Notes: generated by a model not told the origin, from the sequence alone. A DNA stretch of 64,000 bases from Candidatus Moraniibacteriota bacterium (GCA_041596615.1 JBFHIG010000001.1:5262-69261); one strand, 5' to 3'. Positions 12,798 to 55,584 are shown, counted from the stretch's first letter. Numbers and translations: made by a program.

Positions 12798-12825
12798 TGT
12801 TGTTACTGAAAATGAACTCAAAAAA

Positions 12826-12854
12826 ATCCTTACTCTGAAAAGAGTAAGGATTTT
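12826..12854. terminator. Bidirectional rho-independent terminator
   Basis: ATCCTTACTCT / AGAGTAAGGAT 11-bp stem, GAAA loop, A-run on the left and T-run on the right, between convergent genes. Confidence 0.75.
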
Positions 12855-12898
12855 CTGAATTAGTAGACCATCAAACAACAATTTAAGAATATTTATTT

Positions 12899-13504
12899 TC
12901 AGTTTATTTTTTTCACGACTTTCTTGAACACTTCTTCGGGCGAATCTTCTCCATTTATAACTTCAATTTCCCAGTGCTTTATGAATTTATCAAAAATATT
13001 TTGCTTGTCAATTAGAAATTGCTTTCCTTGTTCAATTTCCCTGTCACGAGAGATTGCAATCTCCGGGGATACTTTTATAAAAAGAGCAGTGTCCGGTCGT
13101 TTCATTAACCTTTGGGTAATTTTCTGCCAAAGAGGAACAGCTTCTTGCTCGACAGATTTCTCAAGGTAGCGAATATTTACAATCTGGTCATAAAAATATC
13201 TATCTGTTAGAACATAGTCATAAGCATCATTCATTTTAAGAACATGTATGAATTGAGAAAATCTGAAAGCGTCAATCATTAAGGCAAATTTTCTTAACAT
13301 AATAGCAAAGGGAGTGGCACTGGTGACTGCCTTGGCTGGCTTAGAGACTGAGCTTTTCTTAATTAGATATTTATTTGCGATAGAGAAATTGATGATGTGA
13401 AAGAAATACACTCGTTTCTTTTCCCCTTCCAAATATTTTTTGAGTTTCTCTAGTTGAGTTGTTTTTCCACTGCCATCCAATCCTGAAATAGTAATAAGTC
13501 TCAT
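12899..13504 (-). CDS. Thymidylate-kinase-like P-loop kinase
   Basis: ISGLDGSGKTTQ P-loop in Tmk-like context and a DRY motif (LTDRYFYDQ). The lid region is divergent, so the substrate is uncertain. Confidence 0.55.
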   Translation of the reverse strand: MRLITISGLDGSGKTTQLEKLKKYLEGEKKRVYFFHIINFSIANKYLIKKSSVSKPAKAVTSATPFAIMLRKFALMIDAFRFSQFIHVLKMNDAYDYVLTDRYFYDQIVNIRYLEKSVEQEAVPLWQKITQRLMKRPDTALFIKVSPEIAISRDREIEQGKQFLIDKQNIFDKFIKHWEIEVINGEDSPEEVFKKVVKKIN

Positions 13505-13515
13505 AGAATGAATTT

Positions 13516-15024
13516 TTAAGCCATTAATACTGCCACGGGCATCATTTTTACTACGGGTTTCATGATTTTATTTGCTTCCATACCAGAAATTGCTAAAGAA
13601 GGGTCTTTGTAATGTGAGGCATCTTGATTTTCGATACCTTTAGAAGTTGCATTATAGAGACGCACTTTTCGCGCCTTCATTTTCTTCATCAATGCTTCAC
13701 GATTTTCTGGTACCTCTGAGGTCTTTGTTTTTGACTTTCCTGTGCCGTGGGCAGCACTAAAGAACGTTTGTTCGTTTTCATCAGTTCCTACTCCAAAATA
13801 GGCCTCTGTGCTCATAGAGGAGGGCATGAAGATTGGCTCCCCGGTTTCCTCGAACAACTTGTGGCCTTTCATTCTTTCTGGGCCATATGCTCTTGTCGCA
13901 TTGCTTCGATGGACTATTAAATTTTCCCCAAAATGTTTCTCTTTGGTTGCTGAAACATGAGTCATGTCATAAACAAGCTTTAGGGCATTATCTTCCCCAA
14001 GGATTTTCTTGATTGCCATTTTTAAATTATGTTGTAAGAGGGTTCTATTTGCAAAACCATGGTTTGCGGCAGCCCGATGCGCGTTGAAATAGTTTTTTCC
14101 CAGTTCTGAATTTGCTTTTATCTTGAAAAAGTCATTCGAATTGCTGTATTTAGGGATGGCATTTTTTAGGGTTTTGTGCCATTCAGTCTTATTGTCTAAA
14201 AAAGTGAATCTCCCCAATTCAGAAACCATTTTTTGACTTAGATGTTCTTTCTTTTTAGGGGTGTAGAAGTAACTTGCGTATTGGCCAAAAAGTCCTGATC
14301 CGGTATGCATTAAAAATACGTATTGATCTTTATGCAAACCAAACTTAGAAGCTAAATTTTCATCAACAACCTCAGTGATTCTCATTAGATCCAAGAAATG
14401 ATTTCCAGCAGCACCCAAAATCCCTGTTCTTAGTTGGGCGATTCGAAAAAATATCTTTGGAATTGCTTTGTATAAATCTTTCTCGGTTATTTTTTCATTC
14501 TCGAACATATTTCCCTCATGCAAGATTCTATTAATCTCGCTGGTATCTTCTTTTAAATATTCCAACAGAGCGATACTCCCACGGATTGAGATGTCAACAA
14601 TGACTTTGTATGGGAGGTATGTCCCCATATAAGTTTTTGTAGGGATTACCTTGATGAGTTCTTTAAAAAGTTCATCTATTTTGTCCTCTGACAGGTCGTT
14701 TTTATCAAAAGGAGTTGATATTAAACGCATTCCACAGTTTGGAGCAGTATCTAGCAACTGTGGCATAAAGTAGTCTTTTGTTGCAACAACAGTCCCGGAA
14801 GGGTTTTTTCTTCCAGGTTTTTGGCAGACATCTGTTAGTGCTGAAACATGATGATATACCTCTTTGTTTTTTGCAACTTCTGCAAGTTGATCTATTGTTG
14901 CTTGGTCTGGCATTAGTTCATCAGAAACCCCGAAATCTACAGAGTTTTTTCTTTCGGCTGTTGGTTCTAATACTTGTTTGAAATTGGATATTTTTTTAAC
15001 TTTATTCATATATTCTTTATTCAT
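13516..15024 (-). CDS. RtcB-family RNA ligase-like protein (divergent)
   Basis: RtcB signature blocks present: PNCGMRL (canonical D-I-N-C-G-V-R), HTGSGLFG (HSGSRG), AANHGFANR, AAHGTGKS (HGAGR nucleophile His). The first metal motif reads TDVCQKPG, where I recall a PD.H.G-type motif (from memory, unverified). Confidence 0.7.
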   Translation of the reverse strand: MNKEYMNKVKKISNFKQVLEPTAERKNSVDFGVSDELMPDQATIDQLAEVAKNKEVYHHVSALTDVCQKPGRKNPSGTVVATKDYFMPQLLDTAPNCGMRLISTPFDKNDLSEDKIDELFKELIKVIPTKTYMGTYLPYKVIVDISIRGSIALLEYLKEDTSEINRILHEGNMFENEKITEKDLYKAIPKIFFRIAQLRTGILGAAGNHFLDLMRITEVVDENLASKFGLHKDQYVFLMHTGSGLFGQYASYFYTPKKKEHLSQKMVSELGRFTFLDNKTEWHKTLKNAIPKYSNSNDFFKIKANSELGKNYFNAHRAAANHGFANRTLLQHNLKMAIKKILGEDNALKLVYDMTHVSATKEKHFGENLIVHRSNATRAYGPERMKGHKLFEETGEPIFMPSSMSTEAYFGVGTDENEQTFFSAAHGTGKSKTKTSEVPENREALMKKMKARKVRLYNATSKGIENQDASHYKDPSLAISGMEANKIMKPVVKMMPVAVLMA

Positions 15025-25466: not shown

Positions 25467-25594
25467 TGTTTGAGGAATTGTTATCCATCCGTGTGAATGT
25501 TAACTAATTCACCGACAGTTTTGTGAAAATTGAAAGGGTGTCATTCCCACCTCAGCATTTGCGGGGCAAACCCGCTCCAGTTTGAAAAAATAAA

Positions 25595-25632
25595 ATAGAT
25601 GCATCTGTAGGTGTATCTATAGATGCATCTAT
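25595..25632. promoter_or_regulatory. Pair of palindromic sites ATAGATGCATCT / TATAGATGCATCTAT (candidate operator)
   Basis: The 10-bp palindrome AGATGCATCT occurs at 25597..25606 and 25621..25630, centres 24 bp apart. The same pair with the same spacing recurs at 50285..50318. Confidence 0.4.
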
Positions 25633-36575: not shown

Positions 36576-36972
36576 TGGTGTGGAGGTGATGGGAGTTGAA
36601 CCCATGTCCAAAATTGATTCTCTGAAACCTTCTACAAGCTTAGTCCGCTTATTTTTACGCATTGCTAATTAAAGCAGACAAAAAATAACATTACGTTTTT
36701 TCCTTCTGTGCGCTTGTTCCATTTCAAAGGAAGAAAATGGCTGCATCTCAAAAAGTGACGCTAGATCCAAAATATTGAGAATTATTTGGCTAACGGGCTG
36801 TTACCTGTTTAGGCTACAGCGGCAGCGAAAGATGGTGCAAAAGCTTGCGCAATTGCGTTCTTTGCTTTAGTAAATGTGTTTGCATTTAAACTTTTTGCCA
36901 TAGTTTTACAAGAATATGGCAGCTTGACTTGCTAGTTAAAAAGTACACAACCTGTCGAAGCCTAGCACCCCC
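36576..36972 (-). ncRNA. ssrA: tmRNA (SsrA), one-piece, CCA encoded
   Basis: On the minus strand the 5' end is GGGGGTGCTAGGCTTCGACAGG and the 3' end is GGACATGGGTTCAACTCCCATCACCTCCACACCA. The acceptor stem has a G3:U pair and there is a T-arm. Tag ORF ...ANTFTKAKNAIAQAFAPSFAAAVA-TAA lies at 36883..36809. Confidence 0.9.
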
Positions 36973-37422: not shown

Positions 37423-37599
37423 TGATAAGTTGATTCAAACATAAAACAAGGCAAAAGGCCTATGTTTAATATGATATATCAAAAAGGATAAATTTGCAAT
37501 TATAAAAATGCTCAGCAATCTGTATTTTTACGCTTAAAAATAGAGATATTGAAGTAAAAATTCCAATACAAAAAATGCGGAATAATTAAAAGTGTTTAC

Positions 37600-37735
37600 G
37601 CGCTGATCTGAGTTTGCCTGCCCGTACTGGTTCAGGCGGGTAAGTCGGACTTTTATTCCAAGAAACAACAAAGAAAACACCCTTTCAAAATACAAGCTAC
37701 AAACTTTGAACCGGGTTGTAAACCCGCTCCAGCGC
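37600..37735. repeat. Composite REP/BIME-like element: expanded type-B hairpin plus type-A hairpin
   Basis: Begins GCGCTGATCTGAGTTT[GCCTGCCCGTACTGGTTCAGGCGGG]TAAGTCGGAC and ends GAACCGGGTTGTAAACCCGCTCCAGCGC. Homologous to the copies at 49168..49345 and 51960..52176. Confidence 0.8.
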
Positions 37736-37778
37736 AAAATAATCTTCAAAAGGATATTTCCAAAATAAGCAGGTGCCA

Positions 37779-38993
37779 TTATTTATATCTCAATGCATCT
37801 AGCGGATCAAGAGAGCTGGCTCTTTTTGCAGGGACAAGCCCCGTTGCGAAGCCAACCATAGTTGCTGCTATTACGATTGTTACGATAAACCAAAGTGGTG
37901 AATAAAAGAGGTCTATTGGTTCTCCACCAAATCGCCCAGAAACAAAATTCAAAAGTAGATTAAAAGCCTCACCCTCGAGCATACCCATTAAAATTCCTGC
38001 AAGTCCGCCAAAAAATCCCATTACAGAGGATTCTGCCACAAAGGTGAGCAAGATATCTTGATTTGAAACCCCGATTGATTTCATGATTCCAATTTCCTGA
38101 GTTCTTTCCATGAGAGTCACGGTCATAGTGTTGAACATTCCAATGGCAGAAACAAACAAGGCGATGATTCCAAACATTCCGAGCACGATTTGAATTACAC
38201 GAAAAACTTTATTGGCTTGATCCACCGTTTCTGAGAGTGATGAAACCATAAAGCCTTTTTCTGTTAACACGTCTCTTAGTCTGTTTACATCTCCGGAATT
38301 TTTTGCCTTTACTTTTGCTTTTGAAAAGCGTGGAATTGTCGTATATTCAAGGACATCTTTGATGTTTACATATACAAGTGGCTCATCTTTTTCAATTACA
38401 CCAACGATTTCAAATGGCTCAGGGATTTCCACTTTTTTAAAAGATTCATTCGCAACGCTATTCTCAGTATCACCGGTGTTTTCAGGAACTCTAATCTCGA
38501 TTCCAATTTTTTGACCGATTATTTGATCGGCTTCTTGTTTGAATATTTTTGTGAAGGCAGAGGTCACAATTACACCATTCTTTTTTTCATCACTAAGTTC
38601 CTCTCCTTCATCAACTGCAATTCCATCCAATTTCAAGAAAGAGGAAGTGACAATATACGTGGAGATCGAAGATGTTAATTCGTTGAAATTGATTTGAGAA
38701 GTGATTTGTAGCAAGGGGCTCACCTCGGTTACGTTGTCTATGCTTGAGAGCTCTGTTACAACTTGAGGAGTAATCACTGCTTGCCCTTCGCTTGAAGGAC
38801 TTACATCAAGTGCAAGCAAGGAGTCGGAAGTGGTGATTTTTTCTAAAAGGACATTTTGTAAACCATACCCAAGTGACACCAGAAACAGAATTGCAGAGAT
38901 TCCAACGCCCATCCCAAGAATTGTCAAAAGAGTACGCGTGGTACGCGCCTTAAACATTCTTGTTGATAATTTTAAGATATCCAGTAATCTCAT
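37779..38993 (-). CDS. ABC transporter permease, MacB/FtsX family
   Basis: N-terminal TM, large periplasmic domain and a C-terminal FtsX 3-TM module (IGIMKSIGVSNQDIL...). Paired with the upstream ATPase. Confidence 0.8.
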   Translation of the reverse strand: MRLLDILKLSTRMFKARTTRTLLTILGMGVGISAILFLVSLGYGLQNVLLEKITTSDSLLALDVSPSSEGQAVITPQVVTELSSIDNVTEVSPLLQITSQINFNELTSSISTYIVTSSFLKLDGIAVDEGEELSDEKKNGVIVTSAFTKIFKQEADQIIGQKIGIEIRVPENTGDTENSVANESFKKVEIPEPFEIVGVIEKDEPLVYVNIKDVLEYTTIPRFSKAKVKAKNSGDVNRLRDVLTEKGFMVSSLSETVDQANKVFRVIQIVLGMFGIIALFVSAIGMFNTMTVTLMERTQEIGIMKSIGVSNQDILLTFVAESSVMGFFGGLAGILMGMLEGEAFNLLLNFVSGRFGGEPIDLFYSPLWFIVTIVIAATMVGFATGLVPAKRASSLDPLDALRYK

Positions 38994-43294: not shown

Positions 43295-43402
43295 TTGCCA
43301 TTGACAAATTACTTAAAATGTGCTATGGTGTCTATAATTTCATTTTAATATGCAATTAACGTAGAGGCTTGAATTCTCAAGCAAAAAGGACGGGGGAATG
43401 AA
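43295..43402 (+). promoter_or_regulatory. Conserved promoter plus 5' leader module, copy 1
   Basis: TTGACA (43301..43306), 17 bp, extended -10 TGCTATGGT (43321..43329). Leader hairpin GCTTGA-ATTC-TCAAGC (43367..43382), then ACGGGGGAA Shine-Dalgarno. Homologous to 54646..54758 and 54086..54193. Confidence 0.6.
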
Positions 43403-43738
43403 ATGCAAATTTATAAAAATGTTGGTTGGATATTGTTTGGAATGATGTTGGCAGTTGGACTTATCGAAGGTAAAAATTATTTCTTTCCACAAAAAGTGGA
43501 ATTTAAAAATGTATACCTTACTACTTTTTCTGCAAAGAAGGGTTCACCAAGAATCCTTTATGCATCCTATGCGGGGATAAACTCAGTTATCACAATTGCC
43601 AGTGACAAAAAAGAGGCGCAGGAATTTGTGATGGAAGATATGAAAAAAATGTATAGCCCAGAAGATGGATGGGGAGACTATACAATCGTTACGGACAAAG
43701 TAAGGAAAGAGCTCTTGGCCAATATCCGCAAAGAGTAA
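43403..43738 (+). CDS. Small signal-anchored protein, cassette family member 1
   Basis: 111 aa with an N-terminal TM. The C-terminal KKMYSPEDGW resembles KDLYPEKDGW in the 54194 paralog. Confidence 0.55.
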   Translation: MQIYKNVGWILFGMMLAVGLIEGKNYFFPQKVEFKNVYLTTFSAKKGSPRILYASYAGINSVITIASDKKEAQEFVMEDMKKMYSPEDGWGDYTIVTDKVRKELLANIRKE

Positions 43739-46536: not shown

Positions 46537-46776
46537 ATGAAAACAATGATATGTAATCAGCTAGATGGTGCTTGCGATAAAGAATTTCATGCGAACTCTT
46601 TTGAAGAGATTGCAGAAATGAGTAAAAAGCATGGAACCGAGATGTTTTAAAAAGGTGATAAGTATAATCTTGAAGCAATGAGTAGGATGAAAGATATGAT
46701 GCAAAAACCCGAAGCCGCGCAAGAATGGTTTGAAAGTAAAAGAAAAGAGTTTGAGGCATTACCAGAAGAAGAATAA
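46537..46776 (+). pseudogene. DUF1059-like gene interrupted by an in-frame TAA
   Basis: Hand translation gives MKTMICNQLDGACDKEFHANSFEEIAEMSKKHGTEMF*KGDKYNLEAMSRMKDMMQKPEAAQEWFESKRKEFEALPEEE*. The TAA is at 46648..46650, where homologs as I recall them have Gln (CAA). Confidence 0.6.
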
Positions 46777-46818
46777 GGTGTCTTGAAAAATAAATTTTTG
46801 GATAGGGAAAAATTTCTT

Positions 46819-46845
46819 CGCTGGAGCGGGCTTGTAGCCCGCTCC
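46819..46845. repeat. Type-A REP hairpin
   Basis: CGCTGGAGCGGGCTTGTAGCCCGCTCC: GGAGCGGGC / GCCCGCTCC perfect 9-bp stem with a CGCT tail. Confidence 0.75.
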
Positions 46846-46897
46846 CATGGTTGGAGCTTCTGTCTAAAAAACAAAAAATGCCTTTAATCAAAATGAA

Positions 46898-47104
46898 CAA
46901 TAAAAGTTATAAGTTTAAAATAAATTCTTTGTGAGAATTAAAACCTTAACACGAACCAATGAACCAGGCTACCCGCCTGAACCAGTACGGGCAGGCAAGC
47001 CCGCTCCAGCGCGAAGGCACAATAAAGTCTGCAATATGCTAAAATAAAAACAAAGCATTTCCCGGGCAAGTGCTGATAAAAGTTGTAAACTGAAAACAAA
47101 TGAA
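46898..47104. repeat. BIME-like mosaic (degenerate module D, module F, expanded type-A end CCCGCTCCAGCGC, module C, module D)
   Basis: Segment-by-segment identity to 48130..48230, 52054..52132 and 52719..52755 (see findings). Confidence 0.75.
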
Positions 47105-47213
47105 CTAGCAAAAAGAATGGAACAGTTTCTCTCGATAAGCCATGTTGCTCATGAATAACCTTATAAATAAGCAAGAGACAGGCAAGTTAGCACTAACGTA
47201 AATAATAAAAAAA

Positions 47214-47981
47214 ATGCAGGAAAAACAAAAACAAGCAAAAAACATATCCAAACTTTTCAGAGGGGCCAAGATGGTTGTTCTGATTTCATTTATGCTCATT
47301 GTTGCAGCTGGAATAGCTTTATGCTTTTTTGTAGCAAGAGAGACATCTCCGGCCGCTGTCACTAGCCAAATAATTGACCAACAAGAAACGCCAATCGCCC
47401 CAGTTCAAAAAAAAGTCGAAATCTCGTCAACAGTTCTTAATCCAAAGGTTGATGGACTGGAATGGAAAGAAATTACACATGCTAACTTTTGGAAAAATCC
47501 TGAGCTTTTTGCTACTCCAGATTATAAATTTGCGAACATAAAATTCTCCTATCCTTCGAGCTGGAAATTTGATTGTTGTGGTGATACGGATCGGGGCAGT
47601 GCTCATTTTATATTTTCTTCAGAAGAGAAAAAGGGTGATTCGCCATATATTTCAATTATGGACTATAGTTTGAGGGGATGTCCTTCTGGAGAAACAACAT
47701 GTGCCATGGATAAGCAAGTTACAAAGATGCCAAAGGAGAAATACGATGATTTGGTTGAGGCAATTCAAGCTGATGCAAAAGTAAAACCAAAAAAGAGCTT
47801 GAAAGGTTTGGGAGTTGAAGCTTTTAACTATGAATATGCCGATGAAAAAGGAATGAAAACTGATTCTTATATATTTAAAACAGGCGAAGACGTTGTTATA
47901 ATTTCATTTGGTCATTACGATGAATTTGAGTCCGGATTTATAGATGATTTTTTAGGAAAGATAGAAAAGGATATAAACTAA
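47214..47981 (+). CDS. Signal-anchored hypothetical protein
   Basis: 255 aa with an N-terminal TM (MVVLISFMLIVAAGIALCFFV). The outer domain has a Cys pair, FDCCGD. Confidence 0.5.
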   Translation: MQEKQKQAKNISKLFRGAKMVVLISFMLIVAAGIALCFFVARETSPAAVTSQIIDQQETPIAPVQKKVEISSTVLNPKVDGLEWKEITHANFWKNPELFATPDYKFANIKFSYPSSWKFDCCGDTDRGSAHFIFSSEEKKGDSPYISIMDYSLRGCPSGETTCAMDKQVTKMPKEKYDDLVEAIQADAKVKPKKSLKGLGVEAFNYEYADEKGMKTDSYIFKTGEDVVIISFGHYDEFESGFIDDFLGKIEKDIN

Positions 47982-48004
47982 CTTTTTGAAGGAATCACAT
48001 CTTT

Positions 48005-48109
48005 GTGCTGGAGCGGGTTTGCAACCCGGTTCTATACTTCAAAGCAACATTATAATATTTTCACCGCGTCTTAAAACAAAAGGTCCGAGTTGCAAACTCG
48101 GACCAGCGC
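48005..48109. repeat. Two-hairpin REP doublet (type A left end, type B right end)
   Basis: GTGCTGGAGCGGGTTTGCAACCCGGTTC ... GGTCCGAGTTGCAAACTCGGACCAGCGC. The ends are imperfect inverted repeats of each other. Confidence 0.8.
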
Positions 48110-48129
48110 AAAGCCAGACGATTGGTATT

Positions 48130-48230
48130 GGTCAAGTGCAAATGAAAGTTGTAGACTAAAAGTAAATTATTTGTGGGAATAGGAACTTTAACACAAACTA
48201 ATGAACCGGGCTACAAGCCCGCTCCAGCGC
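48130..48230. repeat. Mosaic: module D, module F, type-A REP end
   Basis: GGTCAAGTGCAAATGAAAGTTGTAGACTAAAAGTAAATTATTTGTGGGAAT...AATGAACCGGGCTACAAGCCCGCTCCAGCGC parallels 46898..47012. Confidence 0.75.
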
Positions 48231-48381
48231 GAAAATGGAAAGTCATCTTGGTAGCGTCAGGCTTATTTTTATTATACAGTCCACTATTTTTCCTGGGAGT
48301 AGGTTTAATCTCTTATATGCTTTTGGATTATTGTGACAGCAAAATACGTGAATCGAGGCGTTCTAAAGAAAATATTCTCTA

Positions 48382-48460
48382 GGCAAGTATTGATAAAAGT
48401 TGTAAACTGAAAATAAGTGAATTAATAAGAAGAAGAGCGAGTTGCAAACTTGGACTAGTG
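48382..48460. repeat. Module D plus a degenerate type-B hairpin
   Basis: GGCAAGTATTGATAAAAGTTGTAAACTGAAAA, then GAGCGAGTTGCAAACTTGGACTAGTG (a decayed form of GGTCCGAGTTGCAAACTCGGACCAGCG). Confidence 0.65.
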
Positions 48461-48490
48461 TGGAATTTATTAATAATTATTTAGCTTATT

Positions 48491-49153
48491 ATGTTTATAG
48501 AAGAAATAATCCCTCAGCTTGAACAGGAAATCAAAATTCTTTTTCATGAAGAAAGTAGTGGTCATGACATTCATCATTTGAAGCGTGTTTTGAATATCGC
48601 GTTAACACTTCAAAAAAAGGAAGGAGGAGACAGATTAATTATTGCTGTTTCCGCATTTCTACATGACATCCACAGGATTATTCAAAAGGATACTGGAAAA
48701 TTTTGTTCTCCAAAAGATTCACTGCCAAAAGTCAAAGACATGCTTGATAAAACTGAATTAACTGATGAACAAAAGGAAGGAATTCTTCATTGTATCGAAT
48801 ACCATGAGGAATATAATTTCTCTGATAACGGAAAAACCGTAAATGATATTGAAACTTTAGTTTTACAAGATGCTGACAATCTTGATGCAATTGGAGCAAT
48901 TGGCATCGGAAGAACTTTTTCATTCGGAGGAGCAAATAAATTAGTTATGTGGATTCCAGAGAAACCTTTTAATAGAAAAACCTTTGACGAATCCGAGAAA
49001 GATCCTTCAACGATACATCATTTTTATAGTAAGCTCCTAAAACTAAAGGAAAACATGAACACAGAAACAGCGAAGAAAATGGCTGATGTGAGACATGAAT
49101 TTATGGAATTATTTCTCCAAGAATTCTTTGACGAATGGAACGGCAAAAAATAA
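48491..49153 (+). CDS. HD-domain phosphohydrolase
   Basis: GHDIHHLKRV and AFLHDIHR (H...HD metal site) plus LQDADNLDAIGAIGI. Confidence 0.75.
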   Translation: MFIEEIIPQLEQEIKILFHEESSGHDIHHLKRVLNIALTLQKKEGGDRLIIAVSAFLHDIHRIIQKDTGKFCSPKDSLPKVKDMLDKTELTDEQKEGILHCIEYHEEYNFSDNGKTVNDIETLVLQDADNLDAIGAIGIGRTFSFGGANKLVMWIPEKPFNRKTFDESEKDPSTIHHFYSKLLKLKENMNTETAKKMADVRHEFMELFLQEFFDEWNGKK

Positions 49154-49167
49154 CAGTCTAAATTTTT

Positions 49168-49345
49168 GCGCTGGAGCAACTCAGTTCGCGCTGGAGCGGG
49201 TTTCCAACCCGGTCCTATATTTCAAACCAACATTATAATATTTACACCGTGTCTTAAAATAAACAGTCCGAGTTACCCGCCTTTGCAAGCCATAGCGAGA
49301 CAGGCCCGCCTGAACCAGTACGGGCAGGCAAACTTGGAGCAGTGC
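49168..49345. repeat. BIME-like mosaic in inverted orientation relative to 51960..52176
   Basis: GCGCTGGAGCAACTCAGTTCGCGCTGGAGCGGGTTTCCAACCCGGTCC ... AGTCCGAGTTACCCGCCTTTGCAAGCCATAGCGAGACAGGCCCGCCTGAACCAGTACGGGCAGGCAAACTTGGAGCAGTGC. The second part is nearly the reverse complement of 51960..52040. Confidence 0.8.
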
Positions 49346-49380
49346 AAAAAACAAGTAAATTAACCCCTAGTCTAAAATAA

Positions 49381-49770
49381 ATGAAAACAACTTTGCACCA
49401 CTTCGCTTACAATATAAGACCCAATCAATTAGAGTTGGTTTTGGAATTGTTTGAAATACTTGGTTGTACTATTGCATATAGAGAAGGAAACAGTAGATGG
49501 TGCCAAATTGAACAAAAGCCAATCCCAGTTGATATACAAATTATTGAAACTGAAGATGAAGAAATACCATTGGATATAAAAACCAATACGCACATTGCTT
49601 TTTTATCAGACTCCCCAAAAATGGACATTGATAATATAGAAAAATGGGCAAAGAATAAAGATATTCAAATCGTAAGAGGCGGCTGGTCAGACAAAGAACT
49701 TTGGTTTGACTTACCTAACATATTTACCAACTTTGTCGTTGAGATTATGCATATTTCAATTGTAGAATGA
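49381..49770 (+). CDS. Hypothetical protein, possibly VOC-fold
   Basis: 129 aa. HHFAY near the N-terminus and THIAF mid-protein resemble VOC metal ligand positions. Weak evidence. Confidence 0.35.
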   Translation: MKTTLHHFAYNIRPNQLELVLELFEILGCTIAYREGNSRWCQIEQKPIPVDIQIIETEDEEIPLDIKTNTHIAFLSDSPKMDIDNIEKWAKNKDIQIVRGGWSDKELWFDLPNIFTNFVVEIMHISIVE

Positions 49771-49773
49771 AAA

Positions 49774-50193
49774 ATGATAGCCAAATTAGCCACCAAAAAA
49801 CACGAAGACGAAATAAATATTTTCTTTGAAACTCATTTAAACAAAAACAATGAGGCTATCACCTGTGAAGAATTTTTTTGTCCATTTGGAGTGAAAGCTG
49901 CTATAAAAAGAAAACAGGTAATCATTATTCTAGATGATGACAAAAAAATAGTAGCAGCGACCAGATTCTATCCCAGGAAGAGAGACGGCGTTGTGTCAGT
50001 TTATCAATTTGCTATTGATGAACAAAATAGAGGGGAAAACTTTCTAAAGAAAATGCTATTTGTGACAGGATACAAAAACTTTGAAGTTCTCTGCCCATTG
50101 AATTCAAAATTTAACAATTATTATGAAAAGACTGGTTGGATTTTGAAGACCGAAAATAAAAAATATAATTATTGGAATTTATCTCTAAGCTAG
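49774..50193 (+). CDS. Possible GNAT-family N-acetyltransferase
   Basis: 139 aa. VYQFAIDEQNRGENFLKKML resembles GNAT motif A. Starts 4 nt after the previous stop. Confidence 0.4.
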   Translation: MIAKLATKKHEDEINIFFETHLNKNNEAITCEEFFCPFGVKAAIKRKQVIIILDDDKKIVAATRFYPRKRDGVVSVYQFAIDEQNRGENFLKKMLFVTGYKNFEVLCPLNSKFNNYYEKTGWILKTENKKYNYWNLSLS

Positions 50194-50282
50194 TGATGGT
50201 TTGTTTCCTTGTACTGATTTGAATCTGTGGTCAGGTTTTGTAATTCAAGTCAATATGGGCACAAACAAAGCAGTTATTCTAA

Positions 50283-50320
50283 ATAGATGCATCTATAAAG
50301 TACTCTATAGATGCATCTAA
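50283..50320. promoter_or_regulatory. Second pair of TAGATGCATCTA palindromes
   Basis: AGATGCATCT at 50285..50294 and 50309..50318, centres 24 bp apart, as at 25597..25630. The spacer sequence differs between loci (8/14 identical). Confidence 0.4.
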
Positions 50321-50557
50321 AAACAAAAAGGGAAAAATCACACGAAGGTTGATTAAAAAAGGGGAGTGCAACTTCCTGACAATCTCTTGCAATAAAAAAT
50401 CGGAGTTGGCAGTCTGAATCAACGCTGGTGGATAAACTAGAACCAGAGCGAATCCAAGATATTTTTTTGAGTTCATATTTATTAAAACTTAAATTTTCTG
50501 GTATACTAAAGAAGCGAATCTAGGAACTTTAATTTAAAATAAAATTATTATAACTAC

Positions 50558-51457
50558 ATGAGCAAAAGACTAATCATCATCGCAAGTGGCACAACCATAT
50601 TAATCCTGAGTTTTGTATTATTTTTTATCTTGAAGCCTACTAAACCAGATGATAAAATTTCAGCTATGAATGTCGAAGGAGAGATCTTTCAAGGAAGCGA
50701 CAAAATTTTAGACACAAACACCAAAGAAGAAGTTACCCTGAAAGGTTCTGTCTACGAATATTCATGGATAAAATCATTCGACAACTATGATTATGCACAT
50801 TGTCATACAGGTGGTTATGTTTTCAATAAAGAAAACAGCTCAAATATGTTTGAATACAATATCCAGTTCAAAGATAATGTAAATATCAATGAATACAAAG
50901 ATAAACTGATTACCATAAAAGGCGATGAAGTCATTGAAACAAAAGAAATTGATATGAATTGTGACGAAATAAGTCAAAGACCCGCAGGGGAGTGTGAAAA
51001 GAGCGAAACATCTACTTTTTTGTGTAAGAAAATAATCAACGCCACAATAATTGAAAAGGTAAGTGAAATACACGATAAATTTACTGCTAGTATTTCGCCG
51101 AAACAAGATATACTTCAATATTCAATCGGAGATGAAAACCCTACGCTGAATATCCATGATGATTTGATAATTCAAGACACAAAAACCGGGGAAAAAAAGA
51201 TATTTGATCTATATAAAGATCTTTCTAATGAAAATATAAAAAAATATTTACAAAATATTTTTGTGCCTACGCAATATTCTTTATATACAGAAATAATTAA
51301 GTGGTCAGATGATAAAAAAATGTTATATGGCAGGATAGATTTACTTTCCTCGGCTGATCCACCTATGCAAGCAGAGAGTTCATATTTTAAAATCGATACT
51401 GATGCTTGGGGAATAAGCACATCCCCCTTATCTTTTGCTGAAGTAAATGGTAAATAA
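50558..51457 (+). CDS. Signal-anchored hypothetical protein
   Basis: 299 aa with an N-terminal TM (LIIIASGTTILILSFVLFFIL). No motif. Confidence 0.5.
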   Translation: MSKRLIIIASGTTILILSFVLFFILKPTKPDDKISAMNVEGEIFQGSDKILDTNTKEEVTLKGSVYEYSWIKSFDNYDYAHCHTGGYVFNKENSSNMFEYNIQFKDNVNINEYKDKLITIKGDEVIETKEIDMNCDEISQRPAGECEKSETSTFLCKKIINATIIEKVSEIHDKFTASISPKQDILQYSIGDENPTLNIHDDLIIQDTKTGEKKIFDLYKDLSNENIKKYLQNIFVPTQYSLYTEIIKWSDDKKMLYGRIDLLSSADPPMQAESSYFKIDTDAWGISTSPLSFAEVNGK

Positions 51458-51559
51458 ATCTTTATTTACCAATCCGCTCCAGCCAGAATAGATGTTTTTC
51501 CCGTCGAGGCTACGAAAAAGAAGTTATCATAAAAAACCATAAATATAAAATAAAAAAAT

Positions 51560-51928
51560 ATGCATTATATCGATATCAAAAAAAGATGGGAGAAAGTGAG
51601 GATATTTATTTTAATTTACGCTGTTTTTCCTTCGGTAATAATAATAGCGCTTTCCAAATCCAAATCCATATTCTTGGCTGAAATTTTATTTTTTGTCTTA
51701 ACATTTACTCTGGTTTCAGGCTTACTAGCGTTCTTTTATAAGAAATATGATTTCAATAAAAGAATGATTACTGCAGCAAAAAATGAGGGGATTGAAAATG
51801 TTTATTATGATGATTTGAGGGAAAATTTTGTTGCTAGGTTTATTAAGTGGGTTGTGCTGATTTTATTTTTAGTGCTTGTTTTGAAAGTTATAGAGGGCAT
51901 GATAAAAGGTGAAATAATAATTGGTTAA
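51560..51928 (+). CDS. Small membrane protein (3 TM)
   Basis: 122 aa with three hydrophobic spans. Confidence 0.45.
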   Translation: MHYIDIKKRWEKVRIFILIYAVFPSVIIIALSKSKSIFLAEILFFVLTFTLVSGLLAFFYKKYDFNKRMITAAKNEGIENVYYDDLRENFVARFIKWVVLILFLVLVLKVIEGMIKGEIIIG

Positions 51929-51959
51929 AATTATGGCAAATTCGTTATGATTAAAATAT

Positions 51960-52176
51960 TGCGCTGGTCCGAGTTTGCCTGCCCGCACTGGTTCAGGCGG
52001 GCCTGTCTCGCTATGGCTTGCCAAGGCGGGTAACTCGGACCTTTTATTTTAAAACACAACAAAATCTGCAATATGCTAAAATAAAAGCAAAATATTTTAT
52101 AGGCAAGCGCCAATAAAAGTTGTAAACTAAAAAGAAATTAATAAAAAGATAGACCAGGCCAAAAGCCCGCTCCAGT
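51960..52176. repeat. BIME-like mosaic: expanded type-B hairpin, module C, module D, type-A end
   Basis: GCGCTGGTCCGAGTTT[53-nt insert]TAACTCGGACC, then ...AATCTGCAATATGCTAAAATAAAAGCAAA, GGCAAGCGCCAATAAAAGTTGTAAACTAAAAA, ...GCCCGCTCCAGTAC. Confidence 0.8.
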
Positions 52177-52201
52177 ACAAAAACTTCTTAAAAATATCTA
52201 C

Positions 52202-52666
52202 GTGAACCAAACAAATATAATTAATCTTGTTGCCGATATTGTTGAAAAAGCATGTGAGTTAAAAAACAAATTTACCGACGCTACAAACGCCCCAGTTAAC
52301 TATGCTTGTGTGTTTTGTCAAAACGATGAAGAATACAGAGAATTCAAAAAACTCGCAGGTAAAATTGGCAAAGTCATAGAGAATACACCGTCTGGTCCGC
52401 TTTATCACATCAGGCCGATAGACACTGTTTCCGGTCAGCTTAAACTATTAAAAATAAGACGCCCCGACGAGACCAAGCCGGAACGTGGAGACGCGGACTT
52501 TACGGTTAGCGACTATCAAGGTTTTAAAAATAAATATCTACAGCAAAATAGATTTAAATTGATAACACGGCCAGAATTTGAAATGATTGAACTTATGGAT
52601 CCTGGCTTCAATGTTCGCGTTTATTTTTCTTATCCGCCATTGGATGAACAGCTTGGTATTAGCTGA
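52202..52666 (+). CDS. Hypothetical protein
   Basis: 154 aa with a GTG start. No motif recognised. Confidence 0.45.
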   Translation: MNQTNIINLVADIVEKACELKNKFTDATNAPVNYACVFCQNDEEYREFKKLAGKIGKVIENTPSGPLYHIRPIDTVSGQLKLLKIRRPDETKPERGDADFTVSDYQGFKNKYLQQNRFKLITRPEFEMIELMDPGFNVRVYFSYPPLDEQLGIS

Positions 52667-52678
52667 GCCGATATTTTT

Positions 52679-53338
52679 GCGCTGGTCCGAGTTTGTAACT
52701 CGGACCTTTGTTTCAAGACACAATAGAATCTGCAGTATGCTAAAATAAAAACAAATCATTGATACATACACAAAATGCCTTCCGTAAAGTTTGATAAGAA
52801 AATGTCTTCTGGTAGTTTCTTTATTACGCTGACTGTCAAAAATTGGTATTATATTTTTGATAGACATAATCGTTGGGAGATTATAGCCGATTCTTTGGAA
52901 TATTGTCAAAAGAAAAAAGGATTAAAGCTGTTTGGATTTGTTTTTATGTTGAATCATATTCATTTAGTGATAATGTCTGATGATGCACTAGGATTTGTTC
53001 GAGATTTCAAAAAGTTCACTTCTAAGAAATTGCGTGAAAATATTGAATTGAATGAACCCTCCATTATTGAATTATTTTCGAAAGAAGATGGCTCATACAA
53101 ATTTTGGAAATCTAGCAATATGCCAAAAGTTATTAATTCTGAAAAATTTTTATTACAAAAACTTGACTATATTCACAATAATCCCGTTAGAAAAAGATAT
53201 GTGGGAAAAGCAGAAGATTGGTACTGGTCTAGTGCTAATCCAAATTGTAGATTGAGGGTTGATGCTTTGTGGAATTAGTTTTATTTTTGTTTTCGTTGGA
53301 TTTAAACAAAGGTCCGAGTTACAAACTCGGACCAGCGC
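52679..53338 (+). mobile_element. RAYT unit: REP-associated tyrosine transposase gene flanked by inverted REP hairpins
   Basis: 52679..52706 (GCGCTGGTCCGAGTTTGTAACTCGGACC) is the exact reverse complement of 53311..53338. Each forms a hairpin with a 10-bp stem. Confidence 0.8.
52775..53278 (+). CDS. REP-associated tyrosine transposase (IS200/IS605-type Y1 HUH transposase, RAYT-like)
   Basis: HUH motif in FVFMLNHIHLVIMS. Catalytic-Tyr helix LDYIHNNPVRKRYVGKAEDWYWSS. 167 aa, single gene with no tnpB. Confidence 0.8.
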   Translation: MPSVKFDKKMSSGSFFITLTVKNWYYIFDRHNRWEIIADSLEYCQKKKGLKLFGFVFMLNHIHLVIMSDDALGFVRDFKKFTSKKLRENIELNEPSIIELFSKEDGSYKFWKSSNMPKVINSEKFLLQKLDYIHNNPVRKRYVGKAEDWYWSSANPNCRLRVDALWN

Positions 53339-53354
53339 AGAAGAAAATAAGTCT

Positions 53355-53387
53355 AGTCAAATGAGAGCAAAAATTGTAAACTGAAAG
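53355..53387 (+). repeat. Module D copy just outside the right REP
   Basis: AGTCAAATGAGAGCAAAAATTGTAAACTGAAAG aligns with the module D copies at 47065, 48130, 48382 and 52101. Confidence 0.6.
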
Positions 53388-53440
53388 TAAATTCTCTCAT
53401 CAATTGAATAGCGTTGGAAATAAATTTTAAACTGACCTCT

Positions 53441-54026: not shown

Positions 54027-54085
54027 ATGTGCAAGGAGAGTTTCAAATAGCGTGTGCTGGAACGGGTTTACTTACAGAGGTTATT

Positions 54086-54193
54086 TTTGTTGACGAATTG
54101 CTTGAGATGTGCCATTTTATGTATGGTATTGTTTCCATAAATAATTAGTAGGATGGCTTGAATCTTCAAGCAAAAAAAACGGGGGAAATTGCA
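54086..54193 (+). promoter_or_regulatory. Promoter plus 5' leader module, copy 2 (more diverged)
   Basis: TTGACG at 54090..54095. Leader hairpin GCTTGA-ATCT-TCAAGC (54156..54171), then AAAAAAAACGGGGGAAATTGCA-ATG. Confidence 0.5.
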
Positions 54194-54553
54194 ATGAGGA
54201 AGTGTAGGAAAACAAGAATAGGGAAGAGAATGTTTTTTCTTTGCAAAACAATTTTGACAATCTTGGTCATTACAGTCATAGCAGGAAGACCTGCTGTAGC
54301 TTATTGTGATGAAGCTGACCAAGCAGAAAAGAAATTTATAGTCTCTTACAGTGCTGAAAAAAGCAGTGATGCCGAAAGTGACCAAGGGAAAATGAAAATA
54401 CCCATGAGCACTCCTGTGCCAGCACAGAGTAGTGAAATATATGCTCTTGAAAGTGAGATTGCTGTCAAAAAGGTTGCTGAAACAAGGGTGAAGGATCTTT
54501 ACCCTGAAAAAGATGGATGGATCAATCAAAAGATTGAGATTAAACCATATTAG
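54194..54553 (+). CDS. Small signal-anchored protein, cassette family member 2
   Basis: MRKCRKTRIGKRMFF...VIAGRPAVAYCDE...DQGKMK...KKVAETRVKDLYPEKDGW...IKPY is paralogous to 54759..55112. The start is set by the conserved Shine-Dalgarno (track start 54158). Confidence 0.6.
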   Translation: MRKCRKTRIGKRMFFLCKTILTILVITVIAGRPAVAYCDEADQAEKKFIVSYSAEKSSDAESDQGKMKIPMSTPVPAQSSEIYALESEIAVKKVAETRVKDLYPEKDGWINQKIEIKPY

Positions 54554-54645: not shown

Positions 54646-54758
54646 GCTGCCATTGACAAATTGCATAAAATGTGCTATGTTATATGAAGCATCATTTTAT
54701 TGATAGGCAATTAATGAGGTAGCCTGAATTTTCAGGCAAAAAAACGGGGGAATCCGAA
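54646..54758 (+). promoter_or_regulatory. Promoter plus 5' leader module, copy 3
   Basis: TTGACA (54653..54658), 17 bp, extended -10 TGCTATGTT (54673..54681). Leader hairpin GCCTGA-ATTT-TCAGGC (54722..54737), then ACGGGGGAA Shine-Dalgarno. Confidence 0.6.
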
Positions 54759-55112
54759 ATGAGAAAGGCTAAAGAAACGACGATAGGAAACGGAATGGCA
54801 ATTTTTCTTTACATCATGATTTTGGTCATTGCAATTGTTGCAGGAAGACCAGTTTTGGGTCATTGTGAAGAAACCAATCAGGGGCAGCGGTTTATCATCC
54901 GCTACCACGTCGAGAAAACCCAGGAGGTTAAAATTGACCAAGGGAATGTGAAAATGTCCTCCAGTTCTCGTATTGAGAATAAGTGGGCGGAGATAGGCTT
55001 TTATAAAGACAAGGCCACTGCCAAAAAAGTTGGAGAAGAAAGAATGAAAAAGTTACATCCCAAAGACGGATCAACAAAAACATCTGTAACAGTAATTCCT
55101 TATGGGGAATAA
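54759..55112 (+). CDS. Small signal-anchored protein, cassette family member 3
   Basis: MRKAKETTIGNGMAIF...IVAGRPVLGHCEE...DQGNVKM...KKVGEERMKKLHPKDG...VIPYGE. Confidence 0.6.
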   Translation: MRKAKETTIGNGMAIFLYIMILVIAIVAGRPVLGHCEETNQGQRFIIRYHVEKTQEVKIDQGNVKMSSSSRIENKWAEIGFYKDKATAKKVGEERMKKLHPKDGSTKTSVTVIPYGE

Positions 55113-55511: not shown

Positions 55512-55527
55512 GCGCTGGAGCGGGCTT
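55512..55527. repeat. Solo type-A REP half-site
   Basis: GCGCTGGAGCGGGCTT is identical to the left half of the type-A hairpins, with no matching right arm. Confidence 0.5.
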
Positions 55528-55584
55528 GACCACCAGTGTTGGCTCAAGGAGATGGTAGTTTTAAATTAATAGGAAATTTTATTT

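Follow-up and report, generated by a model that had tools for sequence, protein, structure and literature searches.

What are the short repeats that fill the intergenic gaps between 46.8 and 53.4 kb of a 64,000-nucleotide stretch of a Candidatus Moraniibacteriota bacterium genome (GCA_041596615.1, JBFHIG010000001.1:5262-69261; this whole stretch is called the window hereafter), and by what means did they spread? An initial annotation had described positions 46819-53395 as a dense mosaic of at least five independent repeat modules, similar to the bacterial interspersed mosaic elements (BIMEs) of enterobacteria. Our analysis suggested that the region is very probably a REPtron, composed of the gene of an HUH/Y1 transposase for single-stranded DNA (ssDNA) and of the repetitive extragenic palindrome (REP) hairpins that this enzyme is predicted to cleave and rejoin. 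A REPtron is defined as the gene of a REP-associated tyrosine transposase (RAYT) bracketed by inverted REP hairpins (PMC6006769). A RAYT gene with inverted type-B flanks was found at 52775-53278, and the whole array can therefore be accounted for. The unit and its immediate surroundings are as follows.

52679..52706, + strand: type-B REP hairpin GCGCTGGTCCGAGTTTGTAACTCGGACC, left end of the RAYT unit, followed by a T-run and terminator-like
52707..52774, + strand: 5' leader of the RAYT ("module C"), with the extended -10-like motif TGCTAAAAT at 52738-52746
52775..53278, + strand: predicted intact RAYT of 167 aa, with NHIH as the HUH motif and the predicted catalytic tyrosine in DYIHNNPV
53311..53338, - strand: right-hand type-B REP hairpin of the RAYT unit, in inverted orientation to the 52679 copy
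53354..53395, + strand: relic of a RAYT 3' end (type D7), just beyond the right end of the intact unit

The open reading frame (ORF) at 52775-53278 passed the NCBIfam equivalog model NF047646 (REP_Tyr_transpos) with 85.0 bits at a cut-off of 80, and stayed below the cut-off of the NCBIfam IS200 model (15.4 bits, cut-off 55). The AlphaFold2 model, based on 32 homologues, had a predicted local distance difference test (pLDDT) value of 90.7. Its best Foldseek match in the PDB was 4er8_A, the E. coli RAYT bound to REP (E = 1.3e-7, template modeling score 0.65), and the next matches were the IS200/IS605 TnpA transposases of IS608, ISDra2 and IS200. Both histidines of the NHIH motif (H61 and H63) and the tyrosine of DYIHNNPV (Y132) were invariant among the 32 homologues, and Y132 was aligned with Y115 of 4ER8, as counted by hand on the alignment. 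Judged from its sequence and the modeled fold, the ORF very likely encodes an intact RAYT, which may be an active enzyme with ssDNA as its substrate. Homologues of this protein number more than 1000, with many in Patescibacteria, Nitrospirota and anammox bacteria; RayT is the label that several sources already give them. With HMMER, an exhaustive search yielded 3586 representatives at E <= 0.001. RAYTs have been described as single copy per REP type and vertically inherited (Bertels 2017, PMC5581495). One intact RAYT copy was present in the 64 kb, alongside relics of a second lineage.

The hairpins are of two related kinds, types A and B, each with a 10-bp stem and a common GCGCTGG head. They occurred about 20 times in the window, well over chance. 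Against 100 dinucleotide-preserving shuffles of the window, the type-A head GCGCTGGAGCGGG was observed 10 times with up to 2 mismatches (0.14 expected), the type-B head GCGCTGGTCCGAGTT 9 times (0.40 expected), a 25-nt loop insert 4 times (0 expected) and the AAAGTTGTAAACTGAAAA module 6 times (0.55 expected). The copies far exceeded chance, unlike the low-complexity noise that the initial annotation had named as fatal to its proposal. Each of the 13 positions that it listed has a copy, and the dense mosaic is real.

Each REP consists of an unpaired 5' foot, GCGCT, a 10-bp stem and a 3-nt loop. The type-B stem, GGTCCGAGTT/AACTCGGACC, is a perfect 10 bp and folded as ssDNA with -11 kcal/mol (z = -6.8). 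The type-A stem, GGAGCGGGYT/ARCCCGGTYC, has 10 bp with one conserved internal G.G mismatch. CTGG, C10 and G11 were invariant across the hairpins aligned. The head scans and the ssDNA folding agreed on the two hairpin types with a common GCGCTGG, in both orientations, as had been proposed. Stem covariation, which had been suggested as a check, was also present. Among 20 distinct hairpins, 91.5% of the cells paired, and 6 of the 10 pairs showed changes on both sides (28 cells). This level of pairing was reached in 0 of 500 shuffles, and sliding the partner by one column reduced it to 47-61%. The stem is therefore maintained by selection or by the copying mechanism. By analogy with 4ER8, the unpaired CTGG-containing foot may fill the role that GTAG has in E. 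coli.

The same hairpin family was found beside the RAYT gene at five independent loci, namely the window and four related loci, with unrelated gene neighborhoods. The four related loci, with the identity of their RAYT to that of the window, are as follows.

L001: RAYT 93% identical, arranged as B(+)-leader-RAYT-B(-), with 27 heads in 15 kb
L128: RAYT 70% identical, with a type-B hairpin, a type-B variant and an A/B hybrid
L126 (Moranbacteria GCA_034522495.1): RAYT 65% identical, with type-A-like hairpins
L132: RAYT 63% identical, with type-A hairpins on both sides

The type-B variant in L128 has a compensatory change from GAGTT/AACTC to GATTT/AAATC. A search of metagenome contigs with the full type-B hairpin retrieved one contig, L119, which carries a solo type-B hairpin and the leader without a RAYT. 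The 15-mer GCGCTGGTCCGAGTT was also tried as a query against genome contigs and discarded: its 114 or more matches in GC-rich genomes were due to chance, and the sole match in the candidate phyla radiation (CPR), L030, was a coding coincidence.

Within the window, the intergenic gaps between 46.8 and 53.4 kb had been said to be filled almost without exception. By our own tally, clear copies occupy 6 of the 8 sizeable gaps and decayed remnants the other 2. REP-derived sequence makes up about 68% of the six clearly occupied gaps, as tallied from the repeat map. The type-A heads are located at 46818, 48005 and 49188 on the + strand, with a truncated head at 49168, and at 47012, 48230 and 52178 on the - strand. 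The type-B heads are located at 51961 and 52679 on the + strand and at 48109, 49345 and 53338 on the - strand, with a degenerate copy at 48431-48462. Type-B copies thus also occur beyond the flanks of the RAYT, at 48109, 49345, 51961 and 37600. The copies of the array outside the intact unit are listed below.

46818..46845, + strand: solo type-A REP with a perfect 10-bp stem
46961..47012, - strand: type-A REP whose loop has a 24-nt insert (46972-46996); a D7-like relic and the A tail come before it (46890-46960)
48005..48109, + strand: A(+)-B(-) heterodimer of 105 nt with a 49-nt spacer, two separate hairpins on folding
48203..48230, - strand: type-A REP, right end of a decayed type-A RAYT unit, laid out as in L132
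48380..48462, + strand: D7 relic (48380-48421), then a degenerate type-B REP on the - strand (48431-48462)
49168..49187, + strand: REP head, internally collapsed or truncated, directly abutting the next copy
49188..49345, + strand: A(+)-spacer-B(-) heterodimer, the B copy with a 53-nt loop insert and a degenerate head
50400..50449, - strand: probable decayed type-B REP with a loop insert, a weak call (3 mismatches, partly by eye)
51473-51485: decayed REP remnant
51961..52041, + strand: type-B REP with a 53-nt loop insert (insS at 51977-52001 plus 29 nt at 52002-52030)
52151..52178, - strand: degenerate type-A REP, closing end of the 51961-52178 mini-element

The recurrent sequences between the hairpins were recognizable as pieces of RAYT genes. 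A tblastn search of the window with its RAYT gave a second match at 48090-48176 (E = 8e-7), which led to the following relic.

48108..48182, + strand: last 24 codons and stop of a second RAYT lineage, with in-frame AKPDDWYWSSANESCRLKVNYLWE before the stop (tblastn)

This relic was identical at 61 of 71 nt (86%) to the RAYT 3' end of L132, where the gene has type-A flanks, and at 55 of 72 nt to the RAYT of the window itself. A type-A hairpin on the - strand comes next, as in L132. The D7 module, present in six copies that all lie on the + strand, aligned with the same relic and with RAYT 3' ends. The leader module is present in three copies: as the 5' untranslated leader in front of the intact RAYT, at 47018-47059 and at 52042-52096. 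The RAYT leader was also found in L001, L119 and L128. Leader and relic are combined in the interiors of two mini-elements.

47018..47104, + strand: RAYT leader copy fused to a D7 relic
52042..52141, + strand: RAYT leader copy fused to a RAYT 3'-end relic (D7)

Both interiors have the identical leader-relic join, CAAA(G/A)(C/T)ATT followed by GGCAAG(T/C)GC, and the shorter copy at 48366-48421 apparently has the same junction. A junction common to mini-elements at different loci implies one deletion event and subsequent copying. L001 contains three mini-elements with another common junction, GCAG followed by CTAATCC, in which the last 44 nt of the ORF are retained. We also noted that the codons of the conserved WSSAN motif of the RAYT in L001 (10440-10470) read TGGTCCAGCGCTAAT and include, as CCAGCGC, the REP head in reverse complement. 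Directly after these codons, whose counterpart in the window is at 53223-53240, comes the deletion junction common to the L001 mini-elements, at CTAATCC. Possibly, a pseudo-REP head inside the RAYT gene serves as a break point.

Type A belongs with a second RAYT lineage, related to the first, as its cognate hairpin; only 3'-end relics of that lineage survive in the window. By these alignments, the mosaic consists of two REP types and fragments of two RAYT lineages, the type-B-linked one intact and the type-A-linked one decayed here. The linear modules C to F, which had been counted among five or more independent modules, were instead RAYT 5' leader and 3' coding-end fragments, as revealed by tblastn and the alignments. 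The initial annotation had offered fragments of one longer insertion sequence (IS) as an outcome that would overturn it, and linear modules that are pieces of longer RAYT units come near to this.

The sites occupied by the hairpins also had a recognizable signature. In the five loci, the base 5' of the head was T or C in 41 of 44 cases (p = 8e-10 against 50%), with TTT, TTC, TCT and TCC dominating. The doublets showed a T-rich left flank and an A-rich right flank. Each head therefore has the same flank on its own strand, which fits an HUH/Y1 enzyme and not a DDE enzyme. No direct repeats or target-site duplications were seen in the doublet flanks as read by eye. Truncated heads abut complete copies in the window (49168) and repeatedly in L001, which is consistent with insertion into or beside older copies. 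The leader and relic modules all lie on the + strand, which is the strand with positive GC skew and most of the genes. This bias may fit replication-coupled insertion of ssDNA, and equally local duplication. The A-spacer-B doublet is present in two to three copies. These doublet copies, together with the mini-elements with common junctions, suggested that the doublet may be copied as a unit.

We propose the following course of events. The RAYT would cleave and rejoin the REP hairpins as ssDNA. Internal deletion of RAYT units would yield short nonautonomous elements of the form REP-leader-relic-REP, and these derivatives would have multiplied after the deletion. The mini-elements, solo REPs and A-B heterodimers would be copied into T/C-rich sites of the neighboring intergenic gaps, and new copies would often settle beside or inside older ones, producing the mosaic. 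The RAYT units might even be autonomous IS-like transposons, moving as whole B-RAYT-B or A-RAYT-A units and spawning nonautonomous REP doublets by internal deletion, which we regard as possible and on balance doubtful.

The window was also compared with relatives. The release factor RF1 of the window is 86% identical to that of its relatives, and the named matches, at 61-67%, belong to Patescibacteria, Parcubacteria and Moranbacteria. Six relatives (L120-L125) are syntenic with the window over 29.6-43.2 kb. The synteny ends past 43.2 kb, where the flank carries small accessory genes (glyoxalase-like, RibD_C, OmdA, HD, phosphoesterase). These relatives contained zero heads in 5.7-21 kb each. 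The copies outside the array are listed below.

25556-25583: degenerate type-A copy
37600..37735, + strand: B(+)-spacer-A(-) doublet, the B copy with a 24-nt insert, in the FtsX-SmpB spacer
55512..55528, + strand: truncated type-A head, with a similar one at 54054-54066

In the comparison of orthologous loci, which had been suggested as a check, the doublet at 37600-37735 was absent from the FtsX-SmpB spacer of four syntenic relatives from this set, in a loose alignment. A tmRNA gene (Rfam, 152 bits) at 36578-36972 on the - strand adjoins smpB, and the doublet lies just upstream of smpB. This gene was the sole match of the Rfam scan in the window, and no match fell in the repeat region. We also noted that L001-L004 and L120-L122 come from the same sample series of the Joint Genome Institute (3300077323-326, 3300077572), with a RAYT 93% and an RF1 86% identical to those of the window. 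If these belong to one organism, the RAYT is more conserved than the housekeeping RF1, which hints at horizontal transfer or strong constraint.

Several observations weigh against the REP/RAYT explanation. The Pfam Y1_Tnp model fell narrowly under its cut-off on the RAYT ORF (22.2 against 23), and the direct sequence similarity to 4ER8 was weak (E = 0.23). The head differs from the canonical GT[AG]G, and the loop insert is not accounted for. The copies cluster near the RAYT, and local duplication or recombination could explain part of them. The empty-site comparison involved relatives with an RF1 only about 86% identical and a loose intergenic alignment. The copies were counted within the 64-kb window of the genome.

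Inverted heads bound 48005-48109, 51961-52178 and 37600-37735, so the doublets could be miniature inverted-repeat transposable elements (MITEs) with GCGCTGG...CCAGCGC as terminal inverted repeats, moved by an unlinked DDE transposase with the RAYT as a bystander. This is very unlikely. Instead of target-site duplications, of which none were seen, the flanks had T/C-rich sequence 5' of each head; solo hairpins and stacked truncated heads were frequent, and no DDE transposase was present among the ORFs scanned, a part of those in the window. The same hairpins lie beside RAYT homologues in five independent genomes, and the interiors of the mini-elements are RAYT fragments. It is also improbable that the hairpins are host regulatory elements, either terminators or mRNA stabilizers, that were spread by local duplication and gene conversion. 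Such an origin would suit the concentration of the copies in one variable region, the + strand copies 13-41 nt past stop codons, and the terminator-like character of three intact type-B copies, with their GC-rich 10-bp stem and T-run, and of one degenerate type-A copy. However, a terminator could do without the invariant, unpaired CTGG foot, type A has the conserved G.G mismatch and lacks a T-run, and copies occur in both orientations, even where no gene could be terminated. Nor would it explain copies that flank RAYT genes in unrelated contexts, or mini-elements with identical deletion junctions at different loci. Co-option as terminators is in any case compatible with the REP/RAYT explanation.

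We give scarcely any credence to a cassette array, integron-like or other, with the repeats as recombination sites between small accessory genes of one strand. The region does recall such an array, since imperfect palindromes stand between small same-strand genes, most of them accessory (glyoxalase-like, HD, phosphoesterase), and it is non-syntenic with the relatives. Integron attC sites are marked by an R''/L''-L'/R' layout and a GTTRRRY core. The repeats, as read from the sequence, had neither, and copies at 37600 and 25556 lie beyond the array. The ORFs scanned around the region included no integrase; the enzyme linked to the repeats is of the HUH/Y1 type, and the comparison of neighboring genes revealed no cassette reshuffling. 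The REP/RAYT explanation thus remained the preferred one, and it leaves the insert in the hairpin loops to be considered on its own.

The loop insert sits exactly at TT^GTA, in type A (46972-46996) as well as in type B (37616, 49305 and 51977), and also in L001. It was never found outside REP loops in the window and the DNA of the related loci searched. The 53-nt form consists of the 24/25-nt form plus 29 nt with the same terminal AGGCGGG. The short form could therefore be a slippage deletion between direct repeats. The nested insert that had been reported is thus real and precisely placed, but may not have arisen by insertion. It could be a long-loop variant of ancestral origin, a scar left by nested insertion or a tiny element of its own; more speculatively, the 24/53-nt insert could be a separate element that parasitizes the REP loops. 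We rejected the idea that it is a REP-like hairpin itself, as it folded weakly (z = -1.4 to -1.7). The ORFs 37534..37779, 49166..49363 and 51931..52113 translate to ARLNQYGQAN, ARLNQCGQAN and TRLNQYGQAN, as had been pointed out for these spurious ORFs. They span REP copies and read through the loop insert, and for this reason were treated as probable artefacts.

The hairpins and the leader may also have acquired side functions. Three intact type-B copies and the degenerate type-A copy at 52155-52169 had scores like those of intrinsic terminators, and the + strand copies begin 13-41 nt past the stop codons of + strand genes, as read from the sequence. Type-B hairpins with T-runs might act as terminators. 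The leader motif TGnTAAAAT, which is extended -10-like, is kept in the window, L119 and L128, and solo leader copies lie upstream of + strand genes. From the conservation of this motif, the leader may carry a promoter. A scan with the sigma-70 consensus showed no promoter enrichment (30 observed, 27.7 expected).

How does this array compare with known systems? It is a known kind of bacterial element, REP/RAYT and BIME-like, here with a non-GTAG head in a small-genome bacterium of the Patescibacteria (CPR). BIMEs are clusters of REP hairpins; those of enterobacteria have alternating Y and Z REPs with fixed S, L, l, r and s linker motifs, and bind IHF, DNA gyrase or Pol I. The array is similar in its two subtypes in alternating orientation, its recurrent linkers and its packing into intergenic gaps. 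However, its linkers are decayed pieces of RAYT leader and coding sequence, and the hairpins have no sequence relation to enterobacterial REPs. The likeness to BIMEs drawn in the initial annotation thus holds for the REP cluster with two types in alternating orientation, and not for the (G)CGCTGG head in place of GTAG and the Patescibacteria-type host; the cognate RAYT had been overlooked.

A close parallel is with the REPtrons of Proteobacteria (E. coli TnpAREP 4ER8, Pseudomonas REPINs). Common to both are a small HUH/Y1 gene with inverted imperfect palindromes, an unpaired conserved 5' foot, more than one related hairpin subtype, and intergenic singlets, inverted doublets and clusters, and the fold of the window RAYT is nearest to 4ER8. 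In contrast, the foot in the window is GCGCT/CTGG and not GT[AG]G, the host is of low GC content (36%) and Patescibacteria-type, the doublets are A-B heterodimers, many units keep RAYT fragments, and the copies cluster near the RAYT. Canonical REPs of the GTAG superfamily have GT[AG]G at the 5' foot and a 5-13 bp stem, and are short imperfect palindromes, intergenic and multi-copy (Di Nocera 2013, PMC3733652). The REPs of the window have neither the GTAG nor the CGTC tag, whereas the palindrome, the stem, the intergenic multi-copy location and the compensatory changes are all present. A REPIN consists of two inverted REPs with a short spacer, able to form one long hairpin (Bertels & Rainey 2011, PMC3116915). 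The A-B doublet (48005-48109) folded as two separate hairpins and no single long one, and therefore differs from a REPIN in this respect.

Among the TnpAREP subclasses, 2.6 (Bertels group 5) has the motifs NH[LIV]H and YIH[QN]NP, and 2.4 has NH[IFV]H and YIxNNP (Quentin et al. 2018, PMC6006769, Table 1). Subclass 2.6 is found mostly in Bacteroidetes and has atypical flanking structures without GT[AG]G and with weak secondary structures (PMC6006769). NHIH and YIHNNP of the window RAYT fit both signatures, compared by motif description only. It has WK in place of the listed "WQ" motif, and its hairpins are strong, in contrast to the weak ones of subclass 2.6. IS200/IS605 elements and palindrome-associated transposable elements (PATEs) are also similar in the Y1 HUH enzyme, the subterminal hairpins, the lack of any target-site duplication seen, the insertion beside a short specific sequence and the ends-only deletion derivatives. 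However, the ends of IS200/IS605 are not inverted copies of one hairpin, and the protein of the window passes the RAYT model and not the IS200 model.

Other features of the window and of L001 deserve mention. An AT-rich palindromic repeat unrelated to the REPs, TAGATGCATCT(A/G)TA...TATAGATGCATCTA, lies in the gaps 25597-25630 and 50287-50320, each time near a decayed REP. Between two REP clusters, a 69-aa ORF (48173-48382, + strand) ends in a plausible membrane peptide, with VILVASGLFLLYSPLFFLGVGLISYMLLDYCDSKIRESRRSKENIL before the stop; its 5' part overlaps a type-A REP, and its gene status and start are uncertain. A small ORF at 46537-46777 (+ strand), MKTMICNQLDGACDKEFHANSFEEIAEMSKKHGTEMF up to a stop, is broken in frame by TAA at 46648-46650, after which the reading frame stays open up to 46777. 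Decay to a pseudogene, an error of sequencing or read-through might explain this; a suspected resemblance to DUF1059 found no Pfam support. Three paralogous small-gene units (43296-43738, 54085-54553 and 54648-55112) encode 111-131 aa without a Pfam match. They have a common upstream block with TTGACAAATT and TAAAATGTGCTATG, then a GGCTTGAAT..TCAAGC hairpin, an A-run and ACGGGGGAA, and each ends with a hairpin of the AAATCTGCCAAA(C/T)GCAA family. The small genes between the REP clusters were considered as cassettes shuffled relative to L129, and this was rejected; only the 154-aa gene was orthologous (79%), and the other neighbors were unrelated. In L001, the RAYT cluster lies beside a pair resembling a diversity-generating retroelement (11241-13987), bAvd (PF05635/PF22296) and a reverse transcriptase (RVT_1), with REP copies between them.

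REP/RAYT systems have been studied almost solely in Proteobacteria and a few other phyla, and they are reported to be enriched in large genomes (PMC6006769). In the library searched, no paper connected RAYT or REP with Patescibacteria/CPR; in databases, many proteins of this kind already carry the label RayT. This locus shows such a system in compact form, with a foot other than GTAG and with a separate RAYT lineage for each of the two REP types. The repeats account for spurious ORFs and for assembly and annotation noise in CPR metagenome-assembled genomes, and they supply an AT-rich genome with GC-rich hairpins that may be terminators or promoter carriers. The deletion derivatives with RAYT pieces document how a transposon turns into a REP doublet, a route mostly inferred so far. 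Should the RAYT units be autonomous, they would represent a living link between IS200/IS605 elements and the single-copy, "domesticated" RAYTs of Proteobacteria, in a reduced genome of about 1 Mb.

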